Notes: generated from the letters alone by a model not told the origin. DNA of 7,496 nucleotides from Candidatus Iainarchaeum sp. (GCA_028700115.1 JAQVTI010000021.1:1-7496), one strand, 5' to 3'. Positions 1 through 7,496 are shown, counted from the stretch's first letter. Program-made: numbers and translations.

Positions 1-191
1 TAAGTTTATACAGATTAAAATCCTGGGCAAGATGGTTAATCATAATCTTTTCATTATTTAGTTTTTCTTATTCCTTTTTAGGGCTATTGACAGGAAATTT
101 TTCAGTAATTGTTGGATTTTTAATAAACGGGGTAATTGCTTGGTATTTAATATTTGATGAGCAGGTTAAAATTAAATTTAAAGGAAAATAA
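1..191 (+). CDS. 3' end (62 codons + stop) of a small hydrophobic membrane protein of unknown function; 5' end lies outside the window
   Basis: Frame 3 (codons from nt 3) is open from the window edge to TAA 189-191: SLYRLKSWARWLIIIFSLFSFSYSFLGLLTGNFSVIVGFLINGVIAWYLIFDEQVKIKFKGK*. It has two helix-length hydrophobic runs and a Lys-rich tail. A 62-codon stop-free run is unlikely by chance in DNA this AT-rich. It is absent from the ORF track because no start lies in the window. No family recognised. Confidence 0.5.
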   Translation, partial: SLYRLKSWARWLIIIFSLFSFSYSFLGLLTGNFSVIVGFLINGVIAWYLIFDEQVKIKFKGK

Positions 192-200
192 AAGGAAGGG

Positions 201-247
201 TTTTTTAAATATTGTGTTCTAGAATTATTTTAATTATAAAAAGTGAG
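201..247 (+). promoter_or_regulatory. Candidate archaeal promoter and ribosome-binding region of the giant gene
   Basis: TTTAAATA (204-211) fits the archaeal TATA consensus TTTAWATA. A second TATA-like stretch TTTAATTATAAA lies at 228-239. GTGAG (243-247) is a partial match to GGAGGTGA, 9 nt before ATG 257. AT-rich background makes such matches common. Confidence 0.3.
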
Positions 248-256
248 TTGGTTATT

Positions 257-316
257 ATGTTAAAATATTTGAATATATTTTTTGTTATTGTGTTGTTAAT
301 GCCTTTTGCTTTTGCA
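257..316 (+). other. Predicted Sec-type signal peptide of the giant protein
   Basis: MLKYLNIFFVIVLLMPFAFA followed by ELQP: short Lys-containing n-region, 12-13 residue hydrophobic core, A-x-A at -3/-1. By-eye prediction only. Confidence 0.6.
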
Positions 317-3300
317 GAACTACAACCTGTTTTTTTAGATCAAAATATACACTATTTTGGCGAAGAAATAAATTTTGGATTAGTAGGTATTATTCCCGAC
401 GATTTTAATCGTGCAGAATTTCAAATCCAATTACCTATTGGGGACAACTATCATGAAGCTACTTTGTCTTTAACTAATTTAAGTGATTATAGTTTTTCTT
501 TTCCTTTGGATTTTATATATAACGAATTGAAAATAAAATATGTATATTATAATTTTGACAATATAGAAATATTAAATCAAGAACATTTATTAAAATTAGA
601 GAAGTTGTCAATTATAGAAAATATAGGTTATTGTATTAATTCAATCTGTAATAATACTTATTTTGATGACGTGAATGCTAATGAAATTGAATTAACTACT
701 TTTCCTAAAATTAGTGATGAAAACATAAATTTTGATATATTATTAATTTTAGATGGATATATTATAGAAGAAGTAAGAAACACTAAATTACCACATTATT
801 TTGACATAAGAGCAGGAGAGTATGAAATAAAAATAACTCCTAATTATGGGGATTTAAAATTTATAACTAAGTCTTTATTTTTAAATATAATTATAATGCA
901 AGAGAATAATAATAATTTAAGAGAATATTTGAATGAAATTAAAGAACAAGACGCAGATAAAGAAACATTTGTGCTTTTAAATAACGATGAATCTCAGATT
1001 AAAGAACTAAAAACTGAGGGCGAAAAAAATAACTTTTGGATAATTGGATTAGGAATACTTGGAGGATTGATTATTTTGATTACAATATTATTTTTTAATA
1101 AACAAAAAGATAAAAACGAAAAAACAAATAGAAGAGAACTTCGTAAAAGTAGGGGTTTTTTGTTTTTCGTATTTTTTTTATTTTTAGCGTCTTTTGCTTT
1201 TGCAACACCTCTTGATGAAAAAAATGCAGAATATAATAATTTAGAAACCAAATTTAATACATTACAAGAATTATTTCCTTATCCGAAAGCATTTACAATA
1301 AGTGTTAGTAATAGCAATCCACAAAACACACAGTATTATCCAATTTTTGCAACTGGGTTGAATGACACTCAAATCCGTCCCGTTTTAAATAATAAAACCC
1401 AAAATTTGACTGCGAATTTAGAAGCAATTTATTTTTCGATAGATATAAAGAACGCAATCGAAAAATCTAAAACTAATAACAATCCTCTTTTTTTTGAGAG
1501 CGGTTGCGAACAAGTATTAGAGTGGTTTCAAGCAAATCCAATTACAGAAGATCCAAATACTTTGATTGCAAGAACGAAAGAAAATTTATTAAAGAATATA
1601 ATAATAACGGATAAAAAAAACGGATATACCGATAGAGATGTTGTATTTATTAATAATAAACTTAATGAATTAAAAAATAACAAAAAATATAATAATTCAA
1701 TAAATCCTTATGCTGATTATTGTATTTCTGAATATTTGACTAAATTAGAATCTAATCTTGGTGGGAAATATCTTGTGGAAAAAAAAATTTTATTAAAAAT
1801 AAATTATTTTGAAAAAAACACAGAAAAAATAGAAACTCAAGATGACGAAATTACAGATACTATTGTGTTTTTAAATAACAAAAATAAAGATGTTTTAGAA
1901 GGTGAATTTTTAGGTAGCGATCTTAACCATATATTTGTTGAAGTAAATTATGTTAATGATATTTTAAAAGAACAAAGTTTAGTTTTACAAGGAATACCAA
2001 CAGATAGAATTATTAGAAAAGATAATTTAATTGAAGGCAATAAAATAAGTAACTATACTATTCCTTATTTAACAGAAGGAGAAAATTTAACTATAAAATA
2101 TACGGCTCAATTAATAAATTTAGAAATAATGGATTCCGATTATGGTAGTTATTATCAATTAGAAGAGTTGCCTGTAGATTCTTCTGAAATTTATAAAAAA
2201 GGTTTTGCTTTTGTAATTCCTGATAAAAGCATAGCTGCTTTAAGAAATAAAATTATATCTAATATAGAATTAACTGGAATGGTTCGTTTAAATAATGGCA
2301 GATACGAATTAAAATGGAACCCTGAATCGTTAGCTATTCTTGCAGAAGCAAATATTAATCCTGCAAAATTTATTATTATAGATAAAAAGATAATAATTAA
2401 TATAGGTCCAGAAAATCAAAAATTAAATTTAGGTATAGATTGGGATTACGGAATAATACTTGCCGATTCTTCTGAAATTACTTTGTTACTTGAAGAAGAA
2501 AATACCATTTATTTAACACCAAACATAACTAATTTGTATTTAGAATTACTTAAAAAAACAATTATAAAAGCAACAAGCCAAAAGAATTTAGAATTAATTA
2601 GATTACAATTGCCTATTTTTTTTATATTTACATTTAAGAAAAATGCACAAACTATTAATAATGAAGACGCATTATACTTGAAAACATATGATGAAATTGC
2701 AGATTTTCTTAAAAATACAAACCTTACTCCATTAGAAAAAAACATTATATTTAATAATTTAATTTCTTTAACTGAAGATTTTTCTTTTCCAAAACAAGGG
2801 GGTGGGCTATATAAATTTAAATATAAAACAAGATTAGTCCTTAATTACGGGCTTGTTAATTATATTGATAATCCAGAAAATATAAGTAATATTAATATAG
2901 AAAATCAATCTGCAGCAATGCCTTATTTATACGATAATGCTTATTTAGAACGAAAAGGTTTTGTTGATAAAGATTTAACTAAATTTTTGATTTTAGGATA
3001 TCTAGGAGACAATTACAGGTCTTATAATCCTGAACTAAATAAAGATTCAGCATATGATTCGTATGATTCTTATGAATCAGATTTTAAATCACAAACACAA
3101 AAAATATTTGTGGACCAAAATGCGAATGAACAAAATTGGGGGTACTATAAACAATTAATATCGTATCCATTTTATAGAACTGGATTTGAACAAAAGCCAT
3201 GTTCTTATGATAAAGTTAATTTTCCCGAATATTTCTCTGAAAGTTATTGTTCTGTTGCATATAATTTTAATTCTGAAAGTGGAAATTTTGGGACATTATA

Positions 3301-6300
3301 TAATCCAAACAATCTTAATGAGGGTTGGTTAATGCAGGATTACGACTTTCAAAATAATTATACTTCTGCATATAGATCTTTATTACTTCTTGAAGATATA
3401 GATTCTTTTAAAAACAACAAACTTACATTTAATTCAAATCAACTTAAAACATTTAATAAATTAAATGCATTTCTTAGTTTGATAGAATTAGAAGCTATAA
3501 GAAAAAGAGATTCTGGTAATACTAAAAATTATGGAACGGCATTAGTTTTATCTTATAAATTACTAGAGCTTTGGAATGGAAATTATAACGCATTAAAAGA
3601 ATATGATGATTCTAACAGACTTGGACAACAAATTTCTAATATAAATGCGGCTCTTGCGTATCAAGCAACCGTTAAATTAAAAAGCATCATTGCATCAGAC
3701 AAAATTATGAGGTTAGATGCTTATAAAAATATATATGAAACAGATTTTGATAGATTTAAAGAGTCTATTGATCCATCTGCCGGATTTTTTGATCTTACAG
3801 ATTCTGCAAGATTTATGATTACTGGTAGTTGGTTTGAAACATTTATTTTTACGGGGACTAAAAAAGATGTAGAGAAATTAGAACAAAGAGATAGAGATAA
3901 ATATAATAAATTATTACACGGCGCTTGTTGTATAGCGCAAAGATTGGGAGAATTAGAAGGTGTGTCAAATTATAAGAATTGGACGGTTGCTGAAATTAAA
4001 GATAATTACAGTCCATATTCTAAAAATAATAAAATAAAAAATGATGTTATTGGTTGGGTGACTGAAAGATCTGGGTGTAGTGGGACATTAAGAGCAAATC
4101 CAGACGATTGTGCAACAGACATATTATATTTGTATAATTCAAAAGAATATGGAAAAGACCTTTCTATTATTTTAAATGATACAAAAGAAAAAAAATCTAT
4201 AACTAATTATTTAACACAACACTATAATACTAAAGGTCAAATAAATTTAGATATTGATAATGGAGTGCAACTAAGTAGTACAGAAATAGAATTAGAAAAA
4301 GATATTGCAAAATTTAAACCCGGAACAATTGGTAGTGTTTTAAAATTTATAGATGCCGGAATTAATCCCGTGGCAATAGTTCTTACAGTGGCTACTGTGG
4401 GTATAGGTCATGGACTAGCAACAGGAACAGGTGGTTTTTTTACAAGAGTTGCGGGCGGTTTTACAGCAAAATTAGGAACTTCTACAGCTGGAAGTTTAGC
4501 GAGTACTGTGGGTGCGAGAGTAGTATATGAATTGGGGGAAAATGTAGTTATAGACGGGACATACGGAGCGTTAGCTTATAAATTGCCAAATGTTGCGGGC
4601 AAACATCCATTTTTAACTTGTATATTGTTGGGTGTTGTTGCTGGAAATTTTCAAAAACCTTTAGCTAGTTTGGATAATGCTGCAAAAATAATGACTACAG
4701 ATATAATTACAAATGCTGGTTTAAAAAATGCAGACAGTATAAAAATACAAACTGCAATAAAAGAGTCGTTAAATTTAGATTATCAAGATACTGCTGAGCA
4801 ATTATTGAAATTAAAAAGCGGAGAGTCTGCAACAGATGCATTTTTTAAAAAACTACCTAAAGTCGCGGCAGGTTCTGTTGATGATGAACTTGTTAATTCC
4901 ATACAAAAAAATCTAGTGGCTCAAAAAATTTCTGTAAGTGCGGATGTTATAAAAAAAAGTTTAGAAAATAACAATATATATTTAACAACAAGAGCAACGG
5001 CAGTTTCTAAATTTAAATCAACTAAAAGTCTTATAGAAATAAATAGAATGGTTGAAGCAAATTTAGATGAATCTTCTGATAAATTTATTAAATTAGCGAC
5101 AAACCGAACAGTGCCTGAAAGACATGGAATTAAATTTGCAAATATCGTTGACGAATTTGACGATTTAAAAAGATTCAACGAAATTGACCCAGAACATTTT
5201 GCAAAACCAACAAGAATAATATACGATGATTTTGGAAATCCATTAGGTTATGAGATGGATAAAATAAACGGGTTTACTCTTGCAGATTATATTGAAGGGG
5301 GCGGCACACTAGATGATTCTTTTTATAAGAGAATAGAAGATTCTGTCGAAAAATTACATAAGCAAGGATATGCTCACGGCGATATTAATCCTAGAAATAT
5401 AATAATTACTCAAACACCAGAAGGATTAGATTTTAAAATAATAGACCCGGTTGGCTTTAGAAAGCTTGCAGACAATGTAAATTTAAGAAGCACAACAGAT
5501 ACAATAATAAATGACGACACTATAAATGTTAGAAATTTAAAGAACTATACAACTTCTGATCAAATATATTATCAAACAAATTATGTTCCAAAAAATACGG
5601 CATCTCCAGGAATTAAATCAGGCGATTATGTAGTTATAGAAAATAGTACGACTAATAAAATTGGAAAAATACAAATAACACAAGATGGCAGATATTGGAT
5701 AAATTTTTCGGATGGTTCCTCAGGGTATTATAATGAATTAGATATTATAAATATGAAAAACCTAGATAATTATAAGAAACTAGTAGATACAAGTTATATA
5801 AATACATACACTGATGATTATTTAGGTGGACCATTTTTAGAAACACCGAAAAAATTACCAGACACATTTATTTTTAAAAGTACAAATAATTTGGATGGAA
5901 GAGAAATTATTCTTGTTGATAAATTAAATGACCCTATACTAAAAAATTTTTTGTCAGATTTAAAATTAGATTTAAAAAACCTCAGCAGGAGGGATGAATT
6001 TGGTACATTTCTGGATAAAGTATCTTTGGTTAAACAAAGAGTGGATTCTGTAATGAGTCATTATCAAGATTTGGAAAACAGAACAAATTTACTAAAAAAT
6101 ATAATTAACAATAAAGATGTTTCTGGGCAAGTTGTTCCATTAGGTTATTTTATAAATAATAATATAGGGGTTTGTAGACATCGAGCATTATTATATAAAT
6201 TAGCATTAGATGAAATAGATATTAGGTCAACAATAGTAAGAGGTTGGAAAAAAATTGATGGTCTAGATGTAAGACACTCGTGGGTAGAAATAAACGATCC

Positions 6301-7189
6301 CGGAATATCTCGGATGGTAAATGTAGAAGTAGGGGATGGATTTGAGTTAGTGGAATCTTATAAGGGTGTTGGATTTAAGCAATATTTACTTCCGGATGAA
6401 ATGTATGTAGAAAACTATGTAGGAATAAGAAGTATATCAGATTTAGGTCTTGTTGCTGACGAATATTTGCTGTTATATACTCCTCCAAAAGGCGCCGTAG
6501 CCACTGGAGATGGTTTTTTGCATAATAGGAATCCATATCAACACGGTTATAGTACAACAAAGAATTTACAAACAATTGAAATAAAAATAAATAATGCATT
6601 AAAAAATAATTATAGTTTAACTACTTTAGATGACTCGGCGTTTAATAGCGATTCGATAGGATATGCACTTAGAAATATTAATTCAGAATATAGTTCGAAT
6701 GATATAACACAATTAATGATTTATCAGCATCAAAAAATTCAGGATTATATAGATGGCGATATGATATTTTCGCATATATATAAATTAGATAATCCGGTAA
6801 GTAGGAGTTATTTAACAACAGATCAGATTTTGTCTTTAAAAGAAAGAGTGGTGGCTGATTTAAAACAACAAAATATCATTATTCGTTTGGCTGAAGACGG
6901 ATCTATTCAAAAATCATATGGTGCAGGAAAATATAGTTCATTAACGATGATTTCTAGTGGCGAATCTATAATATCAATAGAAAAATCGGCATTTAACGAT
7001 ATAAGTATATTTTCAAAAGAAATGCAAAAAAATTACGCGGTGTGGAGGTTTTCAAAACTTTACGGAAGTAAAGATAAAATTCCGGTATTTTTAATCCCAA
7101 CCCCTGATGGACAGGGCGTGAAACCAATTTGGGCGACTGAGTATTATACAGACTATTATTCTAAAAATTACAACGAATTATTCAATTAA
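257..7189 (+). CDS. Giant multi-domain membrane protein (hypothetical): signal peptide, ecto modules, TM segments, kinase-like domain, SH3/Tudor-like barrel, EDR1/transglutaminase-like Cys-His domain
   Basis: Single stop-free frame 212-7189 on the ORF track. I prefer ATG 257 (2,310 codons) because it yields a canonical signal peptide MLKYLNIFFVIVLLMPFAFA|ELQ. It is preceded by GTGAG (243-247, 9 nt spacing) and TATA-like TTTAAATA (204-211), which TTG 212 would abut. TTG 212 remains possible, with AGGAAGGG at 193-200 upstream. The other five frames are shattered. Block-wise composition and catalytic-looking motifs support real coding. Confidence 0.9.
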   Translation: MLKYLNIFFVIVLLMPFAFAELQPVFLDQNIHYFGEEINFGLVGIIPDDFNRAEFQIQLPIGDNYHEATLSLTNLSDYSFSFPLDFIYNELKIKYVYYNFDNIEILNQEHLLKLEKLSIIENIGYCINSICNNTYFDDVNANEIELTTFPKISDENINFDILLILDGYIIEEVRNTKLPHYFDIRAGEYEIKITPNYGDLKFITKSLFLNIIIMQENNNNLREYLNEIKEQDADKETFVLLNNDESQIKELKTEGEKNNFWIIGLGILGGLIILITILFFNKQKDKNEKTNRRELRKSRGFLFFVFFLFLASFAFATPLDEKNAEYNNLETKFNTLQELFPYPKAFTISVSNSNPQNTQYYPIFATGLNDTQIRPVLNNKTQNLTANLEAIYFSIDIKNAIEKSKTNNNPLFFESGCEQVLEWFQANPITEDPNTLIARTKENLLKNIIITDKKNGYTDRDVVFINNKLNELKNNKKYNNSINPYADYCISEYLTKLESNLGGKYLVEKKILLKINYFEKNTEKIETQDDEITDTIVFLNNKNKDVLEGEFLGSDLNHIFVEVNYVNDILKEQSLVLQGIPTDRIIRKDNLIEGNKISNYTIPYLTEGENLTIKYTAQLINLEIMDSDYGSYYQLEELPVDSSEIYKKGFAFVIPDKSIAALRNKIISNIELTGMVRLNNGRYELKWNPESLAILAEANINPAKFIIIDKKIIINIGPENQKLNLGIDWDYGIILADSSEITLLLEEENTIYLTPNITNLYLELLKKTIIKATSQKNLELIRLQLPIFFIFTFKKNAQTINNEDALYLKTYDEIADFLKNTNLTPLEKNIIFNNLISLTEDFSFPKQGGGLYKFKYKTRLVLNYGLVNYIDNPENISNINIENQSAAMPYLYDNAYLERKGFVDKDLTKFLILGYLGDNYRSYNPELNKDSAYDSYDSYESDFKSQTQKIFVDQNANEQNWGYYKQLISYPFYRTGFEQKPCSYDKVNFPEYFSESYCSVAYNFNSESGNFGTLYNPNNLNEGWLMQDYDFQNNYTSAYRSLLLLEDIDSFKNNKLTFNSNQLKTFNKLNAFLSLIELEAIRKRDSGNTKNYGTALVLSYKLLELWNGNYNALKEYDDSNRLGQQISNINAALAYQATVKLKSIIASDKIMRLDAYKNIYETDFDRFKESIDPSAGFFDLTDSARFMITGSWFETFIFTGTKKDVEKLEQRDRDKYNKLLHGACCIAQRLGELEGVSNYKNWTVAEIKDNYSPYSKNNKIKNDVIGWVTERSGCSGTLRANPDDCATDILYLYNSKEYGKDLSIILNDTKEKKSITNYLTQHYNTKGQINLDIDNGVQLSSTEIELEKDIAKFKPGTIGSVLKFIDAGINPVAIVLTVATVGIGHGLATGTGGFFTRVAGGFTAKLGTSTAGSLASTVGARVVYELGENVVIDGTYGALAYKLPNVAGKHPFLTCILLGVVAGNFQKPLASLDNAAKIMTTDIITNAGLKNADSIKIQTAIKESLNLDYQDTAEQLLKLKSGESATDAFFKKLPKVAAGSVDDELVNSIQKNLVAQKISVSADVIKKSLENNNIYLTTRATAVSKFKSTKSLIEINRMVEANLDESSDKFIKLATNRTVPERHGIKFANIVDEFDDLKRFNEIDPEHFAKPTRIIYDDFGNPLGYEMDKINGFTLADYIEGGGTLDDSFYKRIEDSVEKLHKQGYAHGDINPRNIIITQTPEGLDFKIIDPVGFRKLADNVNLRSTTDTIINDDTINVRNLKNYTTSDQIYYQTNYVPKNTASPGIKSGDYVVIENSTTNKIGKIQITQDGRYWINFSDGSSGYYNELDIINMKNLDNYKKLVDTSYINTYTDDYLGGPFLETPKKLPDTFIFKSTNNLDGREIILVDKLNDPILKNFLSDLKLDLKNLSRRDEFGTFLDKVSLVKQRVDSVMSHYQDLENRTNLLKNIINNKDVSGQVVPLGYFINNNIGVCRHRALLYKLALDEIDIRSTIVRGWKKIDGLDVRHSWVEINDPGISRMVNVEVGDGFELVESYKGVGFKQYLLPDEMYVENYVGIRSISDLGLVADEYLLLYTPPKGAVATGDGFLHNRNPYQHGYSTTKNLQTIEIKINNALKNNYSLTTLDDSAFNSDSIGYALRNINSEYSSNDITQLMIYQHQKIQDYIDGDMIFSHIYKLDNPVSRSYLTTDQILSLKERVVADLKQQNIIIRLAEDGSIQKSYGAGKYSSLTMISSGESIISIEKSAFNDISIFSKEMQKNYAVWRFSKLYGSKDKIPVFLIPTPDGQGVKPIWATEYYTDYYSKNYNELFN
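1034..1204 (+). other. TM helix, basic loop and second signal-peptide-like helix
   Basis: FWIIGLGILGGLIILITILFF (1034-1096), NKQKDKNEKTNRRELRKSRG (1097-1156), FLFFVFFLFLASFAFA (1157-1204), then TPLD. The loop has 9 Lys/Arg in 20 residues, which fits a cytoplasmic loop under the positive-inside rule. Confidence 0.6.
4322..4651 (+). other. Gly/Ala/Val/Thr-rich hydrophobic island with at least two TM-length segments and a GxxxGxxxG motif
   Basis: GTIGSVLKFIDAGINPVAIVLTVATVGIGHGLATGTGGFF...KHPFLTCILLGVVAGNF. GIGHGLATG is at 4400-4426. There is an abrupt local rise in G+C relative to the rest of the gene. Confidence 0.55.
4976..5470 (+). other. Minimal protein-kinase-like (Bud32/RIO/Kdo-like) domain
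   Basis: Catalytic-loop-like GYAHGDINPRNIII (His 5375-5377, Asp 5381-5383, Asn 5396-5398). Metal-binding DFG-equivalent FKIIDPVGF (Asp 5444-5446). Hinge-like GYEMDKINGFTLADYI (5246-5293). Candidate beta3 Lys in AVSKF (5009-5011). No obvious Gly-rich loop or APE segment. The N boundary is uncertain. Confidence 0.55.
5897..6400 (+). other. EDR1-like / transglutaminase-like papain-fold domain with candidate Cys-His-acidic triad
   Basis: GREIILVDKLNDPILKNF ... VVPLGYFINNNIGVCRHRALLYKLALDEIDIRSTIVRG ... DVRHSWVEIND ... MVNVEVGDG. Cys 6173-6175, His 6275-6277, acidic candidates Glu 6326-6328 or Asp 6335-6337. The pattern G-x-C...(basic)V.G...H.W.E fits the transglutaminase-like core. CRHRALL[FY]K matches my memory of plant EDR1/CTR1 N-terminal domains. 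Confidence 0.6.
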
Positions 7190-7348: not shown

Positions 7349-7496
7349 TTGATTCCAAATTCTCTTGGAGCTGCTGCTGCAGGTTATGATCGTTCAATAA
7401 CAATGTTTAGTCCAGAAGGACATCTTTATCAGGTAGATTATGCCTCAAAGATTATAGAAAAAGGAAGTCCTGCTATCGGGATTATCTATAAGCAAG
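7349..7496 (+). CDS. psmA: Proteasome subunit alpha (archaeal 20S core), 5' part only; continues past window end
   Basis: Translation from TTG 7349: (M)[48 protein letters not shown]. It matches the alpha-subunit N-terminal signature YDRxITxFSPxGxLxQVEYA (Thermoplasma PsmA has ...[32 protein letters not shown]). An in-frame TGA at 7340-7342 excludes a longer N-terminus. The next ATG would delete the conserved YDR motif. GGTGA lies at 7338-7342, 6 nt upstream. It is missing from the ORF track because of the non-ATG start and truncation. Confidence 0.9.

Follow-up and report, generated by a model that had tools for sequence, protein, structure and literature searches.

The question raised by this locus is what kind of gene occupies nearly the whole of a 7,496-nucleotide (nt) contig of Candidatus Iainarchaeum sp. 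(GCA_028700115.1, JAQVTI010000021.1:1-7496; here called the window, meaning the entire stretch of DNA analysed) as a single open frame. The window contains one genuine gene, here called the giant, coding for a predicted integral membrane protein of about 2,310 amino acids (aa) in a DPANN archaeon labelled as Iainarchaeota, the lineage to which Candidatus Iainarchaeum belongs. Comparison of the alleles shows this gene to be a recombination-driven divergence island, in which alleles and modules are replaced, and within the allele classes it is under purifying selection.

The stop-free frame described in a first-pass annotation of this DNA was recovered from 212 to 7189 on the plus strand and comprises 2,325 codons from the TTG at 212, or 2,310 aa from the ATG at 257, with the stop codon at 7187-7189. 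This frame contains one stop, whereas the other plus-strand frames contain 262 and 303 and the minus-strand frames 185, 105 and 167. At 72% A+T about 217 stops are expected from base composition, and the probability of encountering none is about 1e-99. The GC content is 0.16 at third codon positions (GC3) and 0.37 at first positions (GC1), which is a coding signature. The largest antisense open reading frames (ORFs), recomputed at 85, 78, 85 and 74 aa, agree with the 74-85 aa annotated earlier. The ratio of nonsynonymous to synonymous divergence (dN/dS) is 0.14-0.26 in the regions shared as constant and 0.22 in one shared cassette, which argues that the alleles are functional and under purifying selection. 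The window protein is identical to MDD3976394.1, deposited as 'hypothetical protein PHN22_04495 [Candidatus ainarchaeum sp.]'.

The ATG at 257 is the likely start codon because the aligned Met begins every homologue, because nucleotide identity with a related locus (L010) starts just 29 nt upstream, and because the TTG at 212 comes directly after the TATA-like TTTAAATA at 204-211, which we take to be a candidate archaeal TATA box. A fusion of two genes was considered, as a second signal-peptide-like segment (aa 301-316) follows a transmembrane (TM) segment and a basic tail; it was rejected on the continuous frame and on the conservation of this hairpin in all homologues. The elements needed for the comparison of alleles are listed below.

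204..211, plus strand: TATA-box-like TTTAAATA, candidate archaeal promoter by direct reading, 46 nt upstream of ATG 257
257..7189, plus strand: giant gene, 2,310 codons and stop (NCBI MDD3976394.1, PHN22_04495; dN/dS 0.26 against L010 over codons 1-1680)
5330..5560, plus strand: 5' recombination junction zone, where identity to L010 decays from 97.7% to background (the blastn tract ends at 5489) and protein identity drops from 92-100% to 16-47%
5489..7186, plus strand: variable, exchangeable C-terminal cassette, aa ~1745-2310 (blastn and pairwise alignments)

Family members and the exchange of alleles and modules

The family is extremely small, and within the reach of the searches all its members come from one archaeal lineage. 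When 5.8 billion protein clusters were searched through a word index, with sequence and family-profile queries, only 7 proteins came up, of 2,310-2,443 aa and sharing 43-94% identity. With the central 1,040 aa as query, HMMER was run exhaustively over 1.84 billion cluster representatives and identified 4 of them, including two more distant giants, P0008 (2,339 aa) and P0009 (2,233 aa), and one 778-aa protein (P0010) that shares the N-terminal part only. Cluster look-ups added 6 near-identical sequences, several of them fragments, for a family total of about 16 sequences, some fragmentary, from NCBI, JGI, ENA and Logan assemblies. A single genome carries the giant among 185,579 species representatives, the metagenome scan returned one JGI contig, already known, and nothing further, and neither a copy of the giant nor a viral context was found in viral contigs. 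The word-indexed search with an alignment of the variable cassette gave zero matches and missed even the family members, so that it is uninformative rather than negative; such negatives for low-complexity proteins encoded by AT-rich DNA are not to be read as absence. The label of orphan given earlier holds for homology to characterised proteins, where a full-length match to a characterised family was looked for and none was found, and fails in that a small family of full-length relatives exists. The lineage-specific character is borne out by the same counts.

Replacement of the C-terminal cassette is seen in several pairs of loci. The window protein (P0001) and P0002 are 97-100% identical up to aa ~1680 and 16-47% from there on; in the DNA, the window and L010 share 97.7% identity from -29 to nt 5489 and no similarity afterwards. 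L002 (P0003) and L006 (P0005) share 96.2% nucleotide identity up to aa ~1740, then none for ~1.75 kb, until 98.7% identity resumes at the stop codon and runs for 10 kb. L011 and L002 are 88.5% identical upstream and 81.7% downstream of a break extending from aa ~1557 to the stop. The window cassette has no close relative, the best being 30-42% identical. The 5' junctions are located in the coding sequence of the kinase C-lobe (aa ~1690-1730) and the 3' junction coincides with the stop codon and the following gene's promoter region, which contains a TATA element. Directly past the stop of the giant, a conserved AAGCAAAACCTATATATA / ATATATGAAATGCTTATCATATAACTT segment was identified in L002 (12475-12560), L003 (10983-11060), L006, L007 and L011 and at the end of L010. 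It comprises the promoter and 5' end of a 102-aa ArsR-family (HTH_5) gene, uncalled in some loci, and is the putative 3' homology anchor for cassette exchange.

Within the cassette, the block formed by the barrel and the transglutaminase-like domain and the C-terminal domain reassort independently of each other. The last 210 aa of P0002 are 98-100% identical to those of P0004 (99.3% of the DNA over 690 nt), with 37-54% identity in aa 1800-2040 and ~55-60% in the N-terminal parts. P0009 and P0004 are 73-87% identical over aa 1740-2100 and ~30% elsewhere, and P0006 groups with P0008 by its tail and with P0003 by its body.

Exchange extends to the rest of the gene. In L001 and L008 the flanks share 92.5-96% of their DNA and the flanking proteins are 95-100% identical, with a synonymous divergence (dS) of 0.16-0.33, whereas the giants are 35.5% identical with a dS of 1.3; the similarity breaks at codon ~42 and again ~44 nt beyond the stop. 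For L002 and L003 the dS is 0.03-0.43 in the flanks versus 1.36 in the giant. A CoA-ligase row calculated on the wrong strand is left out of these dS comparisons. Internal blocks are also replaced, P0013 being equal to P0003 except in aa ~1150-1400 and P0011 to P0005 except in aa ~200-300. Genes on which other organisms exert diversifying or frequency-dependent selection typically look like this, and we infer that such organisms, whether hosts, competitors or viruses, drive the diversity here.

Two technical or mechanistic origins of the mosaic were considered. An assembly chimera is ruled out for the L002/L006 and L001/L008 pairs only, with conserved flanks on both sides; it is unlikely as a general cause since with both flanks conserved two precise switches would be needed. 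Hypermutation by a diversity-generating retroelement was rejected: the window has no long repeat pair, no reverse transcriptase gene was found in any family neighbourhood, and the divergence covers hundreds of codons and is neither adenine-specific nor site-specific.

Two further observations concern the exchanged regions. The giants of the window and L010 are 97.7% identical over 5.2 kb and differ in both flanks; the upstream flank of L010 is 94% identical to L007, and L010 ends with the ArsR-promoter motif. Two explanations offer themselves, a move of the gene body from one genomic context to another or a chimera in one of the two contigs. The replaced island of L008 contains ~1.3 kb (14705-15986) absent from the otherwise 93-96% identical L001, with extra ORFs of 198 aa (a pilin-like N-terminus, MYKRKGLQPIVATILLVV, and a weak Flp1-like match) and 256 aa (a weak FGE-sulfatase match).

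Every full-length locus contains one uninterrupted gene of ~2,200-2,450 aa amid archaeal housekeeping genes, in six contexts beyond the window, and no orthologous locus splits it into several separate genes. Two types of synteny were identified: Metallophos-GIANT-(ArsR)-IscS-NifU (P0003, P0004, P0005, P0006 and P0009, with P0002 assigned by its flanks) and RIO1-KH/PNO1-GIANT-Topo VI (P0007 and P0008). The neighbours of the giant in the window fit neither type and are the following:

3..191, plus strand: 3' end of an upstream gene outside the giant, coding for a small hydrophobic protein (62 aa seen by frame translation, TAA at 189-191)
7349..7496, plus strand: 5' end of psmA (proteasome alpha subunit; PF10584, E=1.4e-12), a neighbour and not a partner

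The upstream fragment has no Pfam match and no similarity to any other family locus. The downstream gene was correctly taken to be a proteasome alpha subunit; the search for homologues that had been proposed was fruitful, and the adjacency to psmA that was to be sought along with them is absent from all other family loci. Searches for tRNA and Rfam families gave no matches, and the sigma-70 and terminator scan, based on bacterial models that are irrelevant for an archaeon, stayed below shuffle expectation.

In the surrounding genes, two inteins are polymorphic within the lineage. NifU has 532-534 aa with Intein_splicing and LAGLIDADG matches in L002, L003 and L006, and 143 aa without them in L007 and L001. 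The TPP_enzyme_C protein (thiamine pyrophosphate subunit of pyruvate:ferredoxin oxidoreductase) has 678+ aa with an intein and 308-312 aa otherwise. The shorter protein P0010 has a different architecture and unrelated neighbours: in L013 (1-13535, GCA_046128295.1) the first 529 aa of the family are followed by a Cys-rich tail that is unrelated to the family and shares 32% identity with the C-terminus of an ORF two genes upstream (L013 1-2115). The four large ORFs clustered at this locus (704+, 978, 778 and 1956+ aa) encode secreted or membrane proteins with no relation to the remainder of the giant.

Predicted architecture and topology

The giant is divided into two N-terminal regions without relatives, a set of membrane segments and a tail with features of known enzymes. 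As annotated at first, it contains blocks of hydrophobic segments, cysteines and catalytic-looking motifs, and only about one sixth of its length, namely the kinase-like, barrel and EDR1-like parts, matches known families; ~1,600 aa have no detectable relatives. The order of the parts is as follows:

257..316, plus strand: predicted signal peptide, aa 1-20 (MLKYLNIFFVIVLLMPFAFA before ELQP), by hydropathy and the family-invariant ELQPxFLD after an AxA-like site
317..1030, plus strand: N-terminal ectodomain A, aa 21-258, beta-rich with an acidic stalk at its end (all-beta in AlphaFold2, AF2, at low confidence)
1034..1204, plus strand: TM hairpin with TM1 (aa 260-280), basic loop (aa 281-300, 8 K/R in 20) and TM2 (aa 301-316), the strongest hydrophobic segments in 9/9 members
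1217..4327, plus strand: central ectodomain B, aa 321-1357, alpha/beta then all-alpha, family-only in the exhaustive profile search
4361..4441, plus strand: glycine-rich marginal TM3, aa 1369-1395 (INPVAIVLTVATVGIGHGLATGTGGFF), the sole consistent further span candidate, in 9/9 members of the family alignment
4517..4567, plus strand: invariant polar motif RxxYExGENxxxDxxxG, aa 1421-1437, from the family alignment
4604..4651, plus strand: short hydrophobic helix, aa 1450-1465, after the polar motif
4667..5056, plus strand: helical linker, aa 1471-1600, from low-confidence AF2 secondary structure, with no family match
5057..5491, plus strand: atypical protein-kinase-like module, aa ~1601-1745, from profile, motif and Foldseek matches
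5609..5764, plus strand: SH3-like beta-barrel, aa 1785-1836, from the family alignment and AF2 beta strands
5837..6406, plus strand: EDR1/CTR1/ARMC3-type transglutaminase-like domain, aa 1861-2050 (PF14381)
6554..7186, plus strand: C-terminal alpha/beta domain, aa ~2100-2310, the best-modelled AF2 part (predicted local distance difference test, pLDDT, 70-84)

Ectodomain A has one invariant Cys pair (C126 and C131), no PDB relative below E=0.1 and none in Pfam or NCBIfam; Foldseek gave weak fibronectin type III (FnIII) and intimin-like matches, of the beta-sandwich kind. Ectodomain B has no Pfam, NCBIfam or PDB relative even at E<=10. Its Cys residues (417, 489, 982, 998, 1224/1225, 1274 and 1285) are all invariant in 7 members, and 6/8 in all 9. 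Taken together, the ten ectodomain Cys are all invariant in the seven closer members and 8/10 in all nine, and the tail of 840 aa contributes only the catalytic Cys. In 9/9 full-length members the scan of hydropathy and insertion energy picked out the same set of segments, namely a signal peptide, two strong TMs and, at ~1372-1390, a marginal one. K and R make up 44% of the loop that joins TM1 to TM2. In the polar motif, R1421, Y1424, E1425, G1427, E1428, N1429, D1433 and G1437 are invariant in 9/9.

The simplest topology predicted from these segments exposes the two large N-terminal regions to the exterior and keeps the final ~840 aa in the cell. It fits this distribution of Cys, and a cytoplasmic tail fits the ATP requirement of a kinase. 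The density of N-glycosylation sequons equals the expected one in every region and is uninformative as an indicator of topology. Beside the membrane segments, a 32-nt direct repeat, 78% identical, was identified at window positions 285-316 and 1173-1204, with an identical CTTTTGCTTTTGCA at its end. Its two copies code for the last residues of the signal peptide (PFAFA) and of TM2 (SFAFA). The repeat is found only in the allele class of the window and P0002, others having SSIHA; it may be a small internal duplication or conversion.

The relation of the kinase-like module to protein kinases is supported at the superfamily level by profile matches and catalytic motifs. The family profile (A10) matched ULK2 (1.3e-6), PknB-type kinases (5e-6) and RAD53 (1.2e-5) in the PDB, as well as StkP, with 389 kinases at E<=1; the RAD53 match covers both lobes, whereas hhalign to PKA covers the hinge and catalytic loop only. 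The top Foldseek matches are kinase C-lobes. The catalytic loop HGDINPRN (aa 1707-1714, nt 5375-5398) is paired by hhalign with YRDLKPEN of PKA, and the DFG equivalent IIDPVGF (nt 5438-5458) places its Asp 16 residues past the catalytic-loop Asn. HGDxNPxN and DPVG are conserved in 7/9 members, the exceptions being P0006 and P0008; the 7 members that look active also share candidates for the beta3 Lys (K1612, in FIK) and the alphaC Glu (E1633, in DEF). P0006 presents insertions of roughly 170 aa in the N-lobe region.

After this module comes the barrel, matched by PF22923 (KIF2A-like) in 2 members (E=1.2e-4). Of the two SH3-like barrels found in other members, the first is missing from the window protein (window 5531-5620, aa ~1760-1790). 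The transglutaminase-like domain is the clearest match: PF14381 scores 41.6 bits over aa 1861-2012 (gathering threshold 27, E=1.5e-10), and within the family 6/7 members match PF14381 and 5/7 match PF01841 (Transglut_core), P0009 reaching 44.2 bits. The putative triad C1973 (GVCRH), H2007 (RHSWVE) and D2047 is invariant in 9/9 aligned members. The window copy has an insertion of ~24 aa between the catalytic His and Asp (6293-6385, aa ~2013-2043), which makes the assignment of its Asp less certain. Foldseek matches of the domain are weak (TglA, transglutaminase and 3isr, E 0.03-0.4). Identity as a pseudomurein endoisopeptidase (C71) was rejected, as PF12386 matched no member at E<=0.1. Internal repeats were not found in the giant.

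Readings of the gene product

In the preferred reading, to which we assign a probability of about one half, the giant is a surface protein of receptor type whose enzymatic tail lies in the cytoplasm, and exchange of alleles and modules has diversified it. Two extracellular regions, one beta-rich of 240 aa and one orphan of 1,040 aa, apparently stabilised by the conserved cysteines, would be displayed through a cleaved signal peptide and the TM hairpin. The single glycine-rich TM would lead into a cytoplasmic tail formed, in this order, by the helical linker, the Ser/Thr-kinase-like module, one SH3-like barrel, the EDR1/transglutaminase-like Cys-His-Asp enzyme and the alpha/beta domain. The ectodomains would bind a surface target, either the envelope of a partner or host cell or a virus, and the predicted kinase and thiol enzyme would transmit or execute a response by phosphorylating, cleaving or cross-linking proteins. 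The description as a surface or signalling giant, advanced in the first-pass annotation, is supported by the predicted signal peptide, TM hairpin, ten invariant Cys and kinase-like and transglutaminase-like tail.

Several points weigh against this reading. The topology rests on crude hydropathy scales: TM3 has about +3.4 to +4.6 kcal/mol on an approximate scale, which is marginal, and a fourth hydrophobic segment, reaching threshold in 2 members only, could flip the tail outside. The kinase-like module has no visible GxGxxG glycine-rich loop and is below the cut-offs of Pfam (Pkinase 16.5 versus 31.7 bits, Kdo 16.9 versus 21.3) and NCBIfam (Bud32 23.8 versus 125, PrkT 23.5 versus 280, both at E 2e-5). 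P0006 (L011) and P0008 (L008) have lost both catalytic Asp (HGN..., IGPSAGY) with the Cys-His-Asp triad kept, and their modules look like pseudokinases. The AF2 models are of low quality, with a mean pLDDT of 38-44, and no significant match came out of the fold searches. No partner gene is conserved across the family loci, which leaves the protein with no operon-derived functional context. Finally, variability peaks in the predicted cytoplasmic tail, which is unexpected for a simple surface antigen and keeps in contention both an effector and a defence function.

The best placed of the alternatives, unlikely in our estimate, is a contact-dependent display of effectors in the manner of polymorphic toxins. 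The N-terminal ~1,700 aa would anchor and present the variable cassette of kinase C-lobe, barrel, thiol enzyme and C-terminal domain; once the glycine-rich segment had inserted in the target (host) membrane, this cassette would enter the partner cell or act on it, and a target of another species would make an immunity gene unneeded. A constant N-terminal part with an exchangeable C-terminal cassette and sharp junctions speaks for this reading, cassettes do cross between lineages with N-terminal parts only ~30% identical (P0004/P0009, 73-87% over aa 1740-2100), and TM3 is marginally hydrophobic. Transglutaminase- and papain-like domains are common toxin modules and toxins with distant targets typically have no immunity genes, although classical polymorphic toxins are rare in archaea (PMC3482391). 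The cassettes of the giant, however, are all homologous and share one domain order instead of being unrelated toxin folds. Orphan cassettes, repeats and secretion-associated domains were not found, nor was an immunity-like ORF or orphan giant fragment in any flank (tblastn of the C-terminal regions against all flanks). Ectodomain blocks and the whole gene are replaced as well, so that variability is not specific to the C-terminus, and a kinase delivered in this way would require ATP.

Next, and somewhat less probable, comes a chiefly structural role in the envelope or in adhesion, as an S-layer-associated anchor or an adhesin, where the tail would serve envelope maintenance and the diversity would reflect avoidance of viruses and hosts at the surface. 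It accounts for the large Cys-stabilised ectodomains and for the beta-sandwich-like N-terminal domain (the weak FnIII and intimin-like Foldseek matches), and a hypervariable surface island is a precedent (PMC4535781). Yet no S-layer, adhesin or repeat domain was detected with Pfam, NCBIfam or the repeat search, the catalytic motifs of two cytoplasmic-type enzymes are conserved, and within allele classes the tail is less conserved than the core of the ectodomain.

A membrane-anchored antiviral defence protein or infection sensor is more doubtful than these two. Its ectodomain or tail would sense an attack by a virus, its kinase and thiol peptidase would trigger a protective or abortive response, and the variable tail would record an arms race with viral inhibitors. 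The best PADLOC matches are kinase-containing defence proteins (MkoA 8e-8, PD-T4-6 2e-5), but the resemblance does not extend beyond the generic kinase core. Defence genes typically show allelic hypervariability, and the predicted cytoplasmic region is where the giant varies most; against this, the neighbours are housekeeping genes with no defence island, a Cys-stabilised ectodomain of 1,275 aa is unusual for known defence systems, and the search of viral contigs found nothing.

An artefact, either a chimeric metagenomic assembly or a decaying pseudogene resembling one long gene, is very improbable: the window is a whole 7,496-bp contig of a metagenome-assembled genome with flanks matching no other family locus and a cassette without close relative, and L010, a mosaic of several sources, might in principle be a chimera, but the frame is open for 2,310 codons of AT-rich DNA under purifying selection, the architecture recurs in the ~16 family sequences (NCBI, JGI, ENA and Logan), P0004 is identical in six contigs, and the L002/L006 and L001/L008 replacements have conserved DNA on both sides.

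A more ambitious reading can be formulated, which we regard as unlikely, if less so than the alternatives above. The giant would be an archaeal receptor-effector system diversified by recombination, allorecognition-like or polymorphic-effector-like, at the contact sites of DPANN cells. At least four reassorting modules (the stalk with the TM hairpin, the membrane-proximal ectodomain, the barrel with the thiol enzyme, and the C-terminal domain) would set partner and target specificity. If so, DPANN archaea would have their first described system of this sort, and the pairing of kinase and EDR1 domain, familiar from plant CTR1/EDR1, would have a prokaryotic example. If modules set the specificity for partners or viruses, allele typing would provide a strain-level marker of DPANN-host or DPANN-virus relations in anaerobic communities.

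DPANN archaea need cell contact, and the molecules of contact, specificity and conflict are almost unknown, SPEARE proteins being the main precedent. The giant family is a compact, well-delimited and experimentally tractable candidate for this interaction biology, as replacement of alleles and modules between near-identical genomes usually marks genes at the interface between organisms. The pairing of a kinase with an EDR1-type domain in an archaeal membrane protein also bears on the origin and function of that domain.

Comparison with known systems

The allelic and modular exchange is the new result; giant DPANN membrane proteins and hypervariable surface loci are already known, and the finding is not categorically new. 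The closest group by layout is that of the SPEARE giants of Nanohaloarchaeota, composed of an ectodomain, TM segments and a cytoplasmic enzyme and proposed to act in host-cell interaction (PMC6642349). Both are DPANN giants, and the hydropathy pattern of 9/9 members, in which TM3 is marginal, predicts for the present family a layout like that of SPEARE, mostly extracytoplasmic with a TM toward the C-terminus and an enzymatic cytoplasmic tail. No sequence relationship was detected between them. SPEARE proteins have serine-protease, laminin-G/adhesion and type III restriction-endonuclease domains, none of which was identified in the giant with Pfam or NCBIfam, whereas the giant has a kinase-like module and an EDR1/transglutaminase-like domain. 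The cytoplasmic part is the most conserved in SPEARE, and in the giant the predicted cytoplasmic part is the most variable. Sizes are 3-8.5 and 2.3 thousand aa respectively.

The domain PF14381, a peptidase-like domain of the transglutaminase/papain-like kind, is placed near MEROPS families C71 and C93 and is often fused to kinases (PMC10318531). Plant CTR1/EDR1 kinases are alike in that PF14381 and a protein-kinase-like module share one polypeptide. The order is reversed in the giant (kinase first), and the plant kinases are Raf-like (PK_Tyr_Ser-Thr), whereas that of the giant is an atypical minimal kinase in the context of a giant archaeal membrane protein. Bacterial and archaeal Hanks/ePK Ser/Thr kinases of receptor type, such as PknB/StkP, share with the giant the succession of extracellular sensor, TM and cytoplasmic kinase, which for the giant is predicted, with HxDxxxxN and the Asp equivalent to that of DFG. 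They differ in that the module of the giant lies ~230 aa beyond the TM instead of at the N-terminus, precedes a thiol-enzyme domain and looks inactive in 2/9 alleles. Among minimal kinases (Bud32, RIO and Kdo), the module matches Bud32 and Kdo below the curated cut-offs.

Polymorphic toxin systems (PMC3482391) resemble the giant in a conserved N-terminal bulk, a recombined C-terminus and cassettes shared across divergent lineages. The giant has neither an immunity gene (downstream genes are psmA, ArsR/IscS or Topo VI, none immunity-like) nor standalone cassettes, RHS or filamentous haemagglutinin repeats, or secretion domains. Toxin cassettes are unrelated folds, whereas those of the giant are homologous variants of barrel, transglutaminase-like domain and C-terminal domain. 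As a classical polymorphic toxin the giant was rejected on the immunity gene, the standalone cassettes and the unrelated folds alike.

The cell-wall island of Haloquadratum walsbyi comprises surface genes diversified by recombination under purifying selection, which has been attributed to virus avoidance (PMC4535781). It shares with the giant the conserved flanks, the deeply divergent alleles, the homologous recombination and the purifying selection within alleles. The giant loci differ in the extent of the island, reduced to about one gene, in the reshuffling of sub-gene modules that include the predicted cytoplasmic enzyme domains, and in being without mobile elements or glycosylation genes. 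On this comparison, the exchange pattern of the giant most resembles that of recombination-diversified surface-gene islands such as the Haloquadratum cell-wall island.

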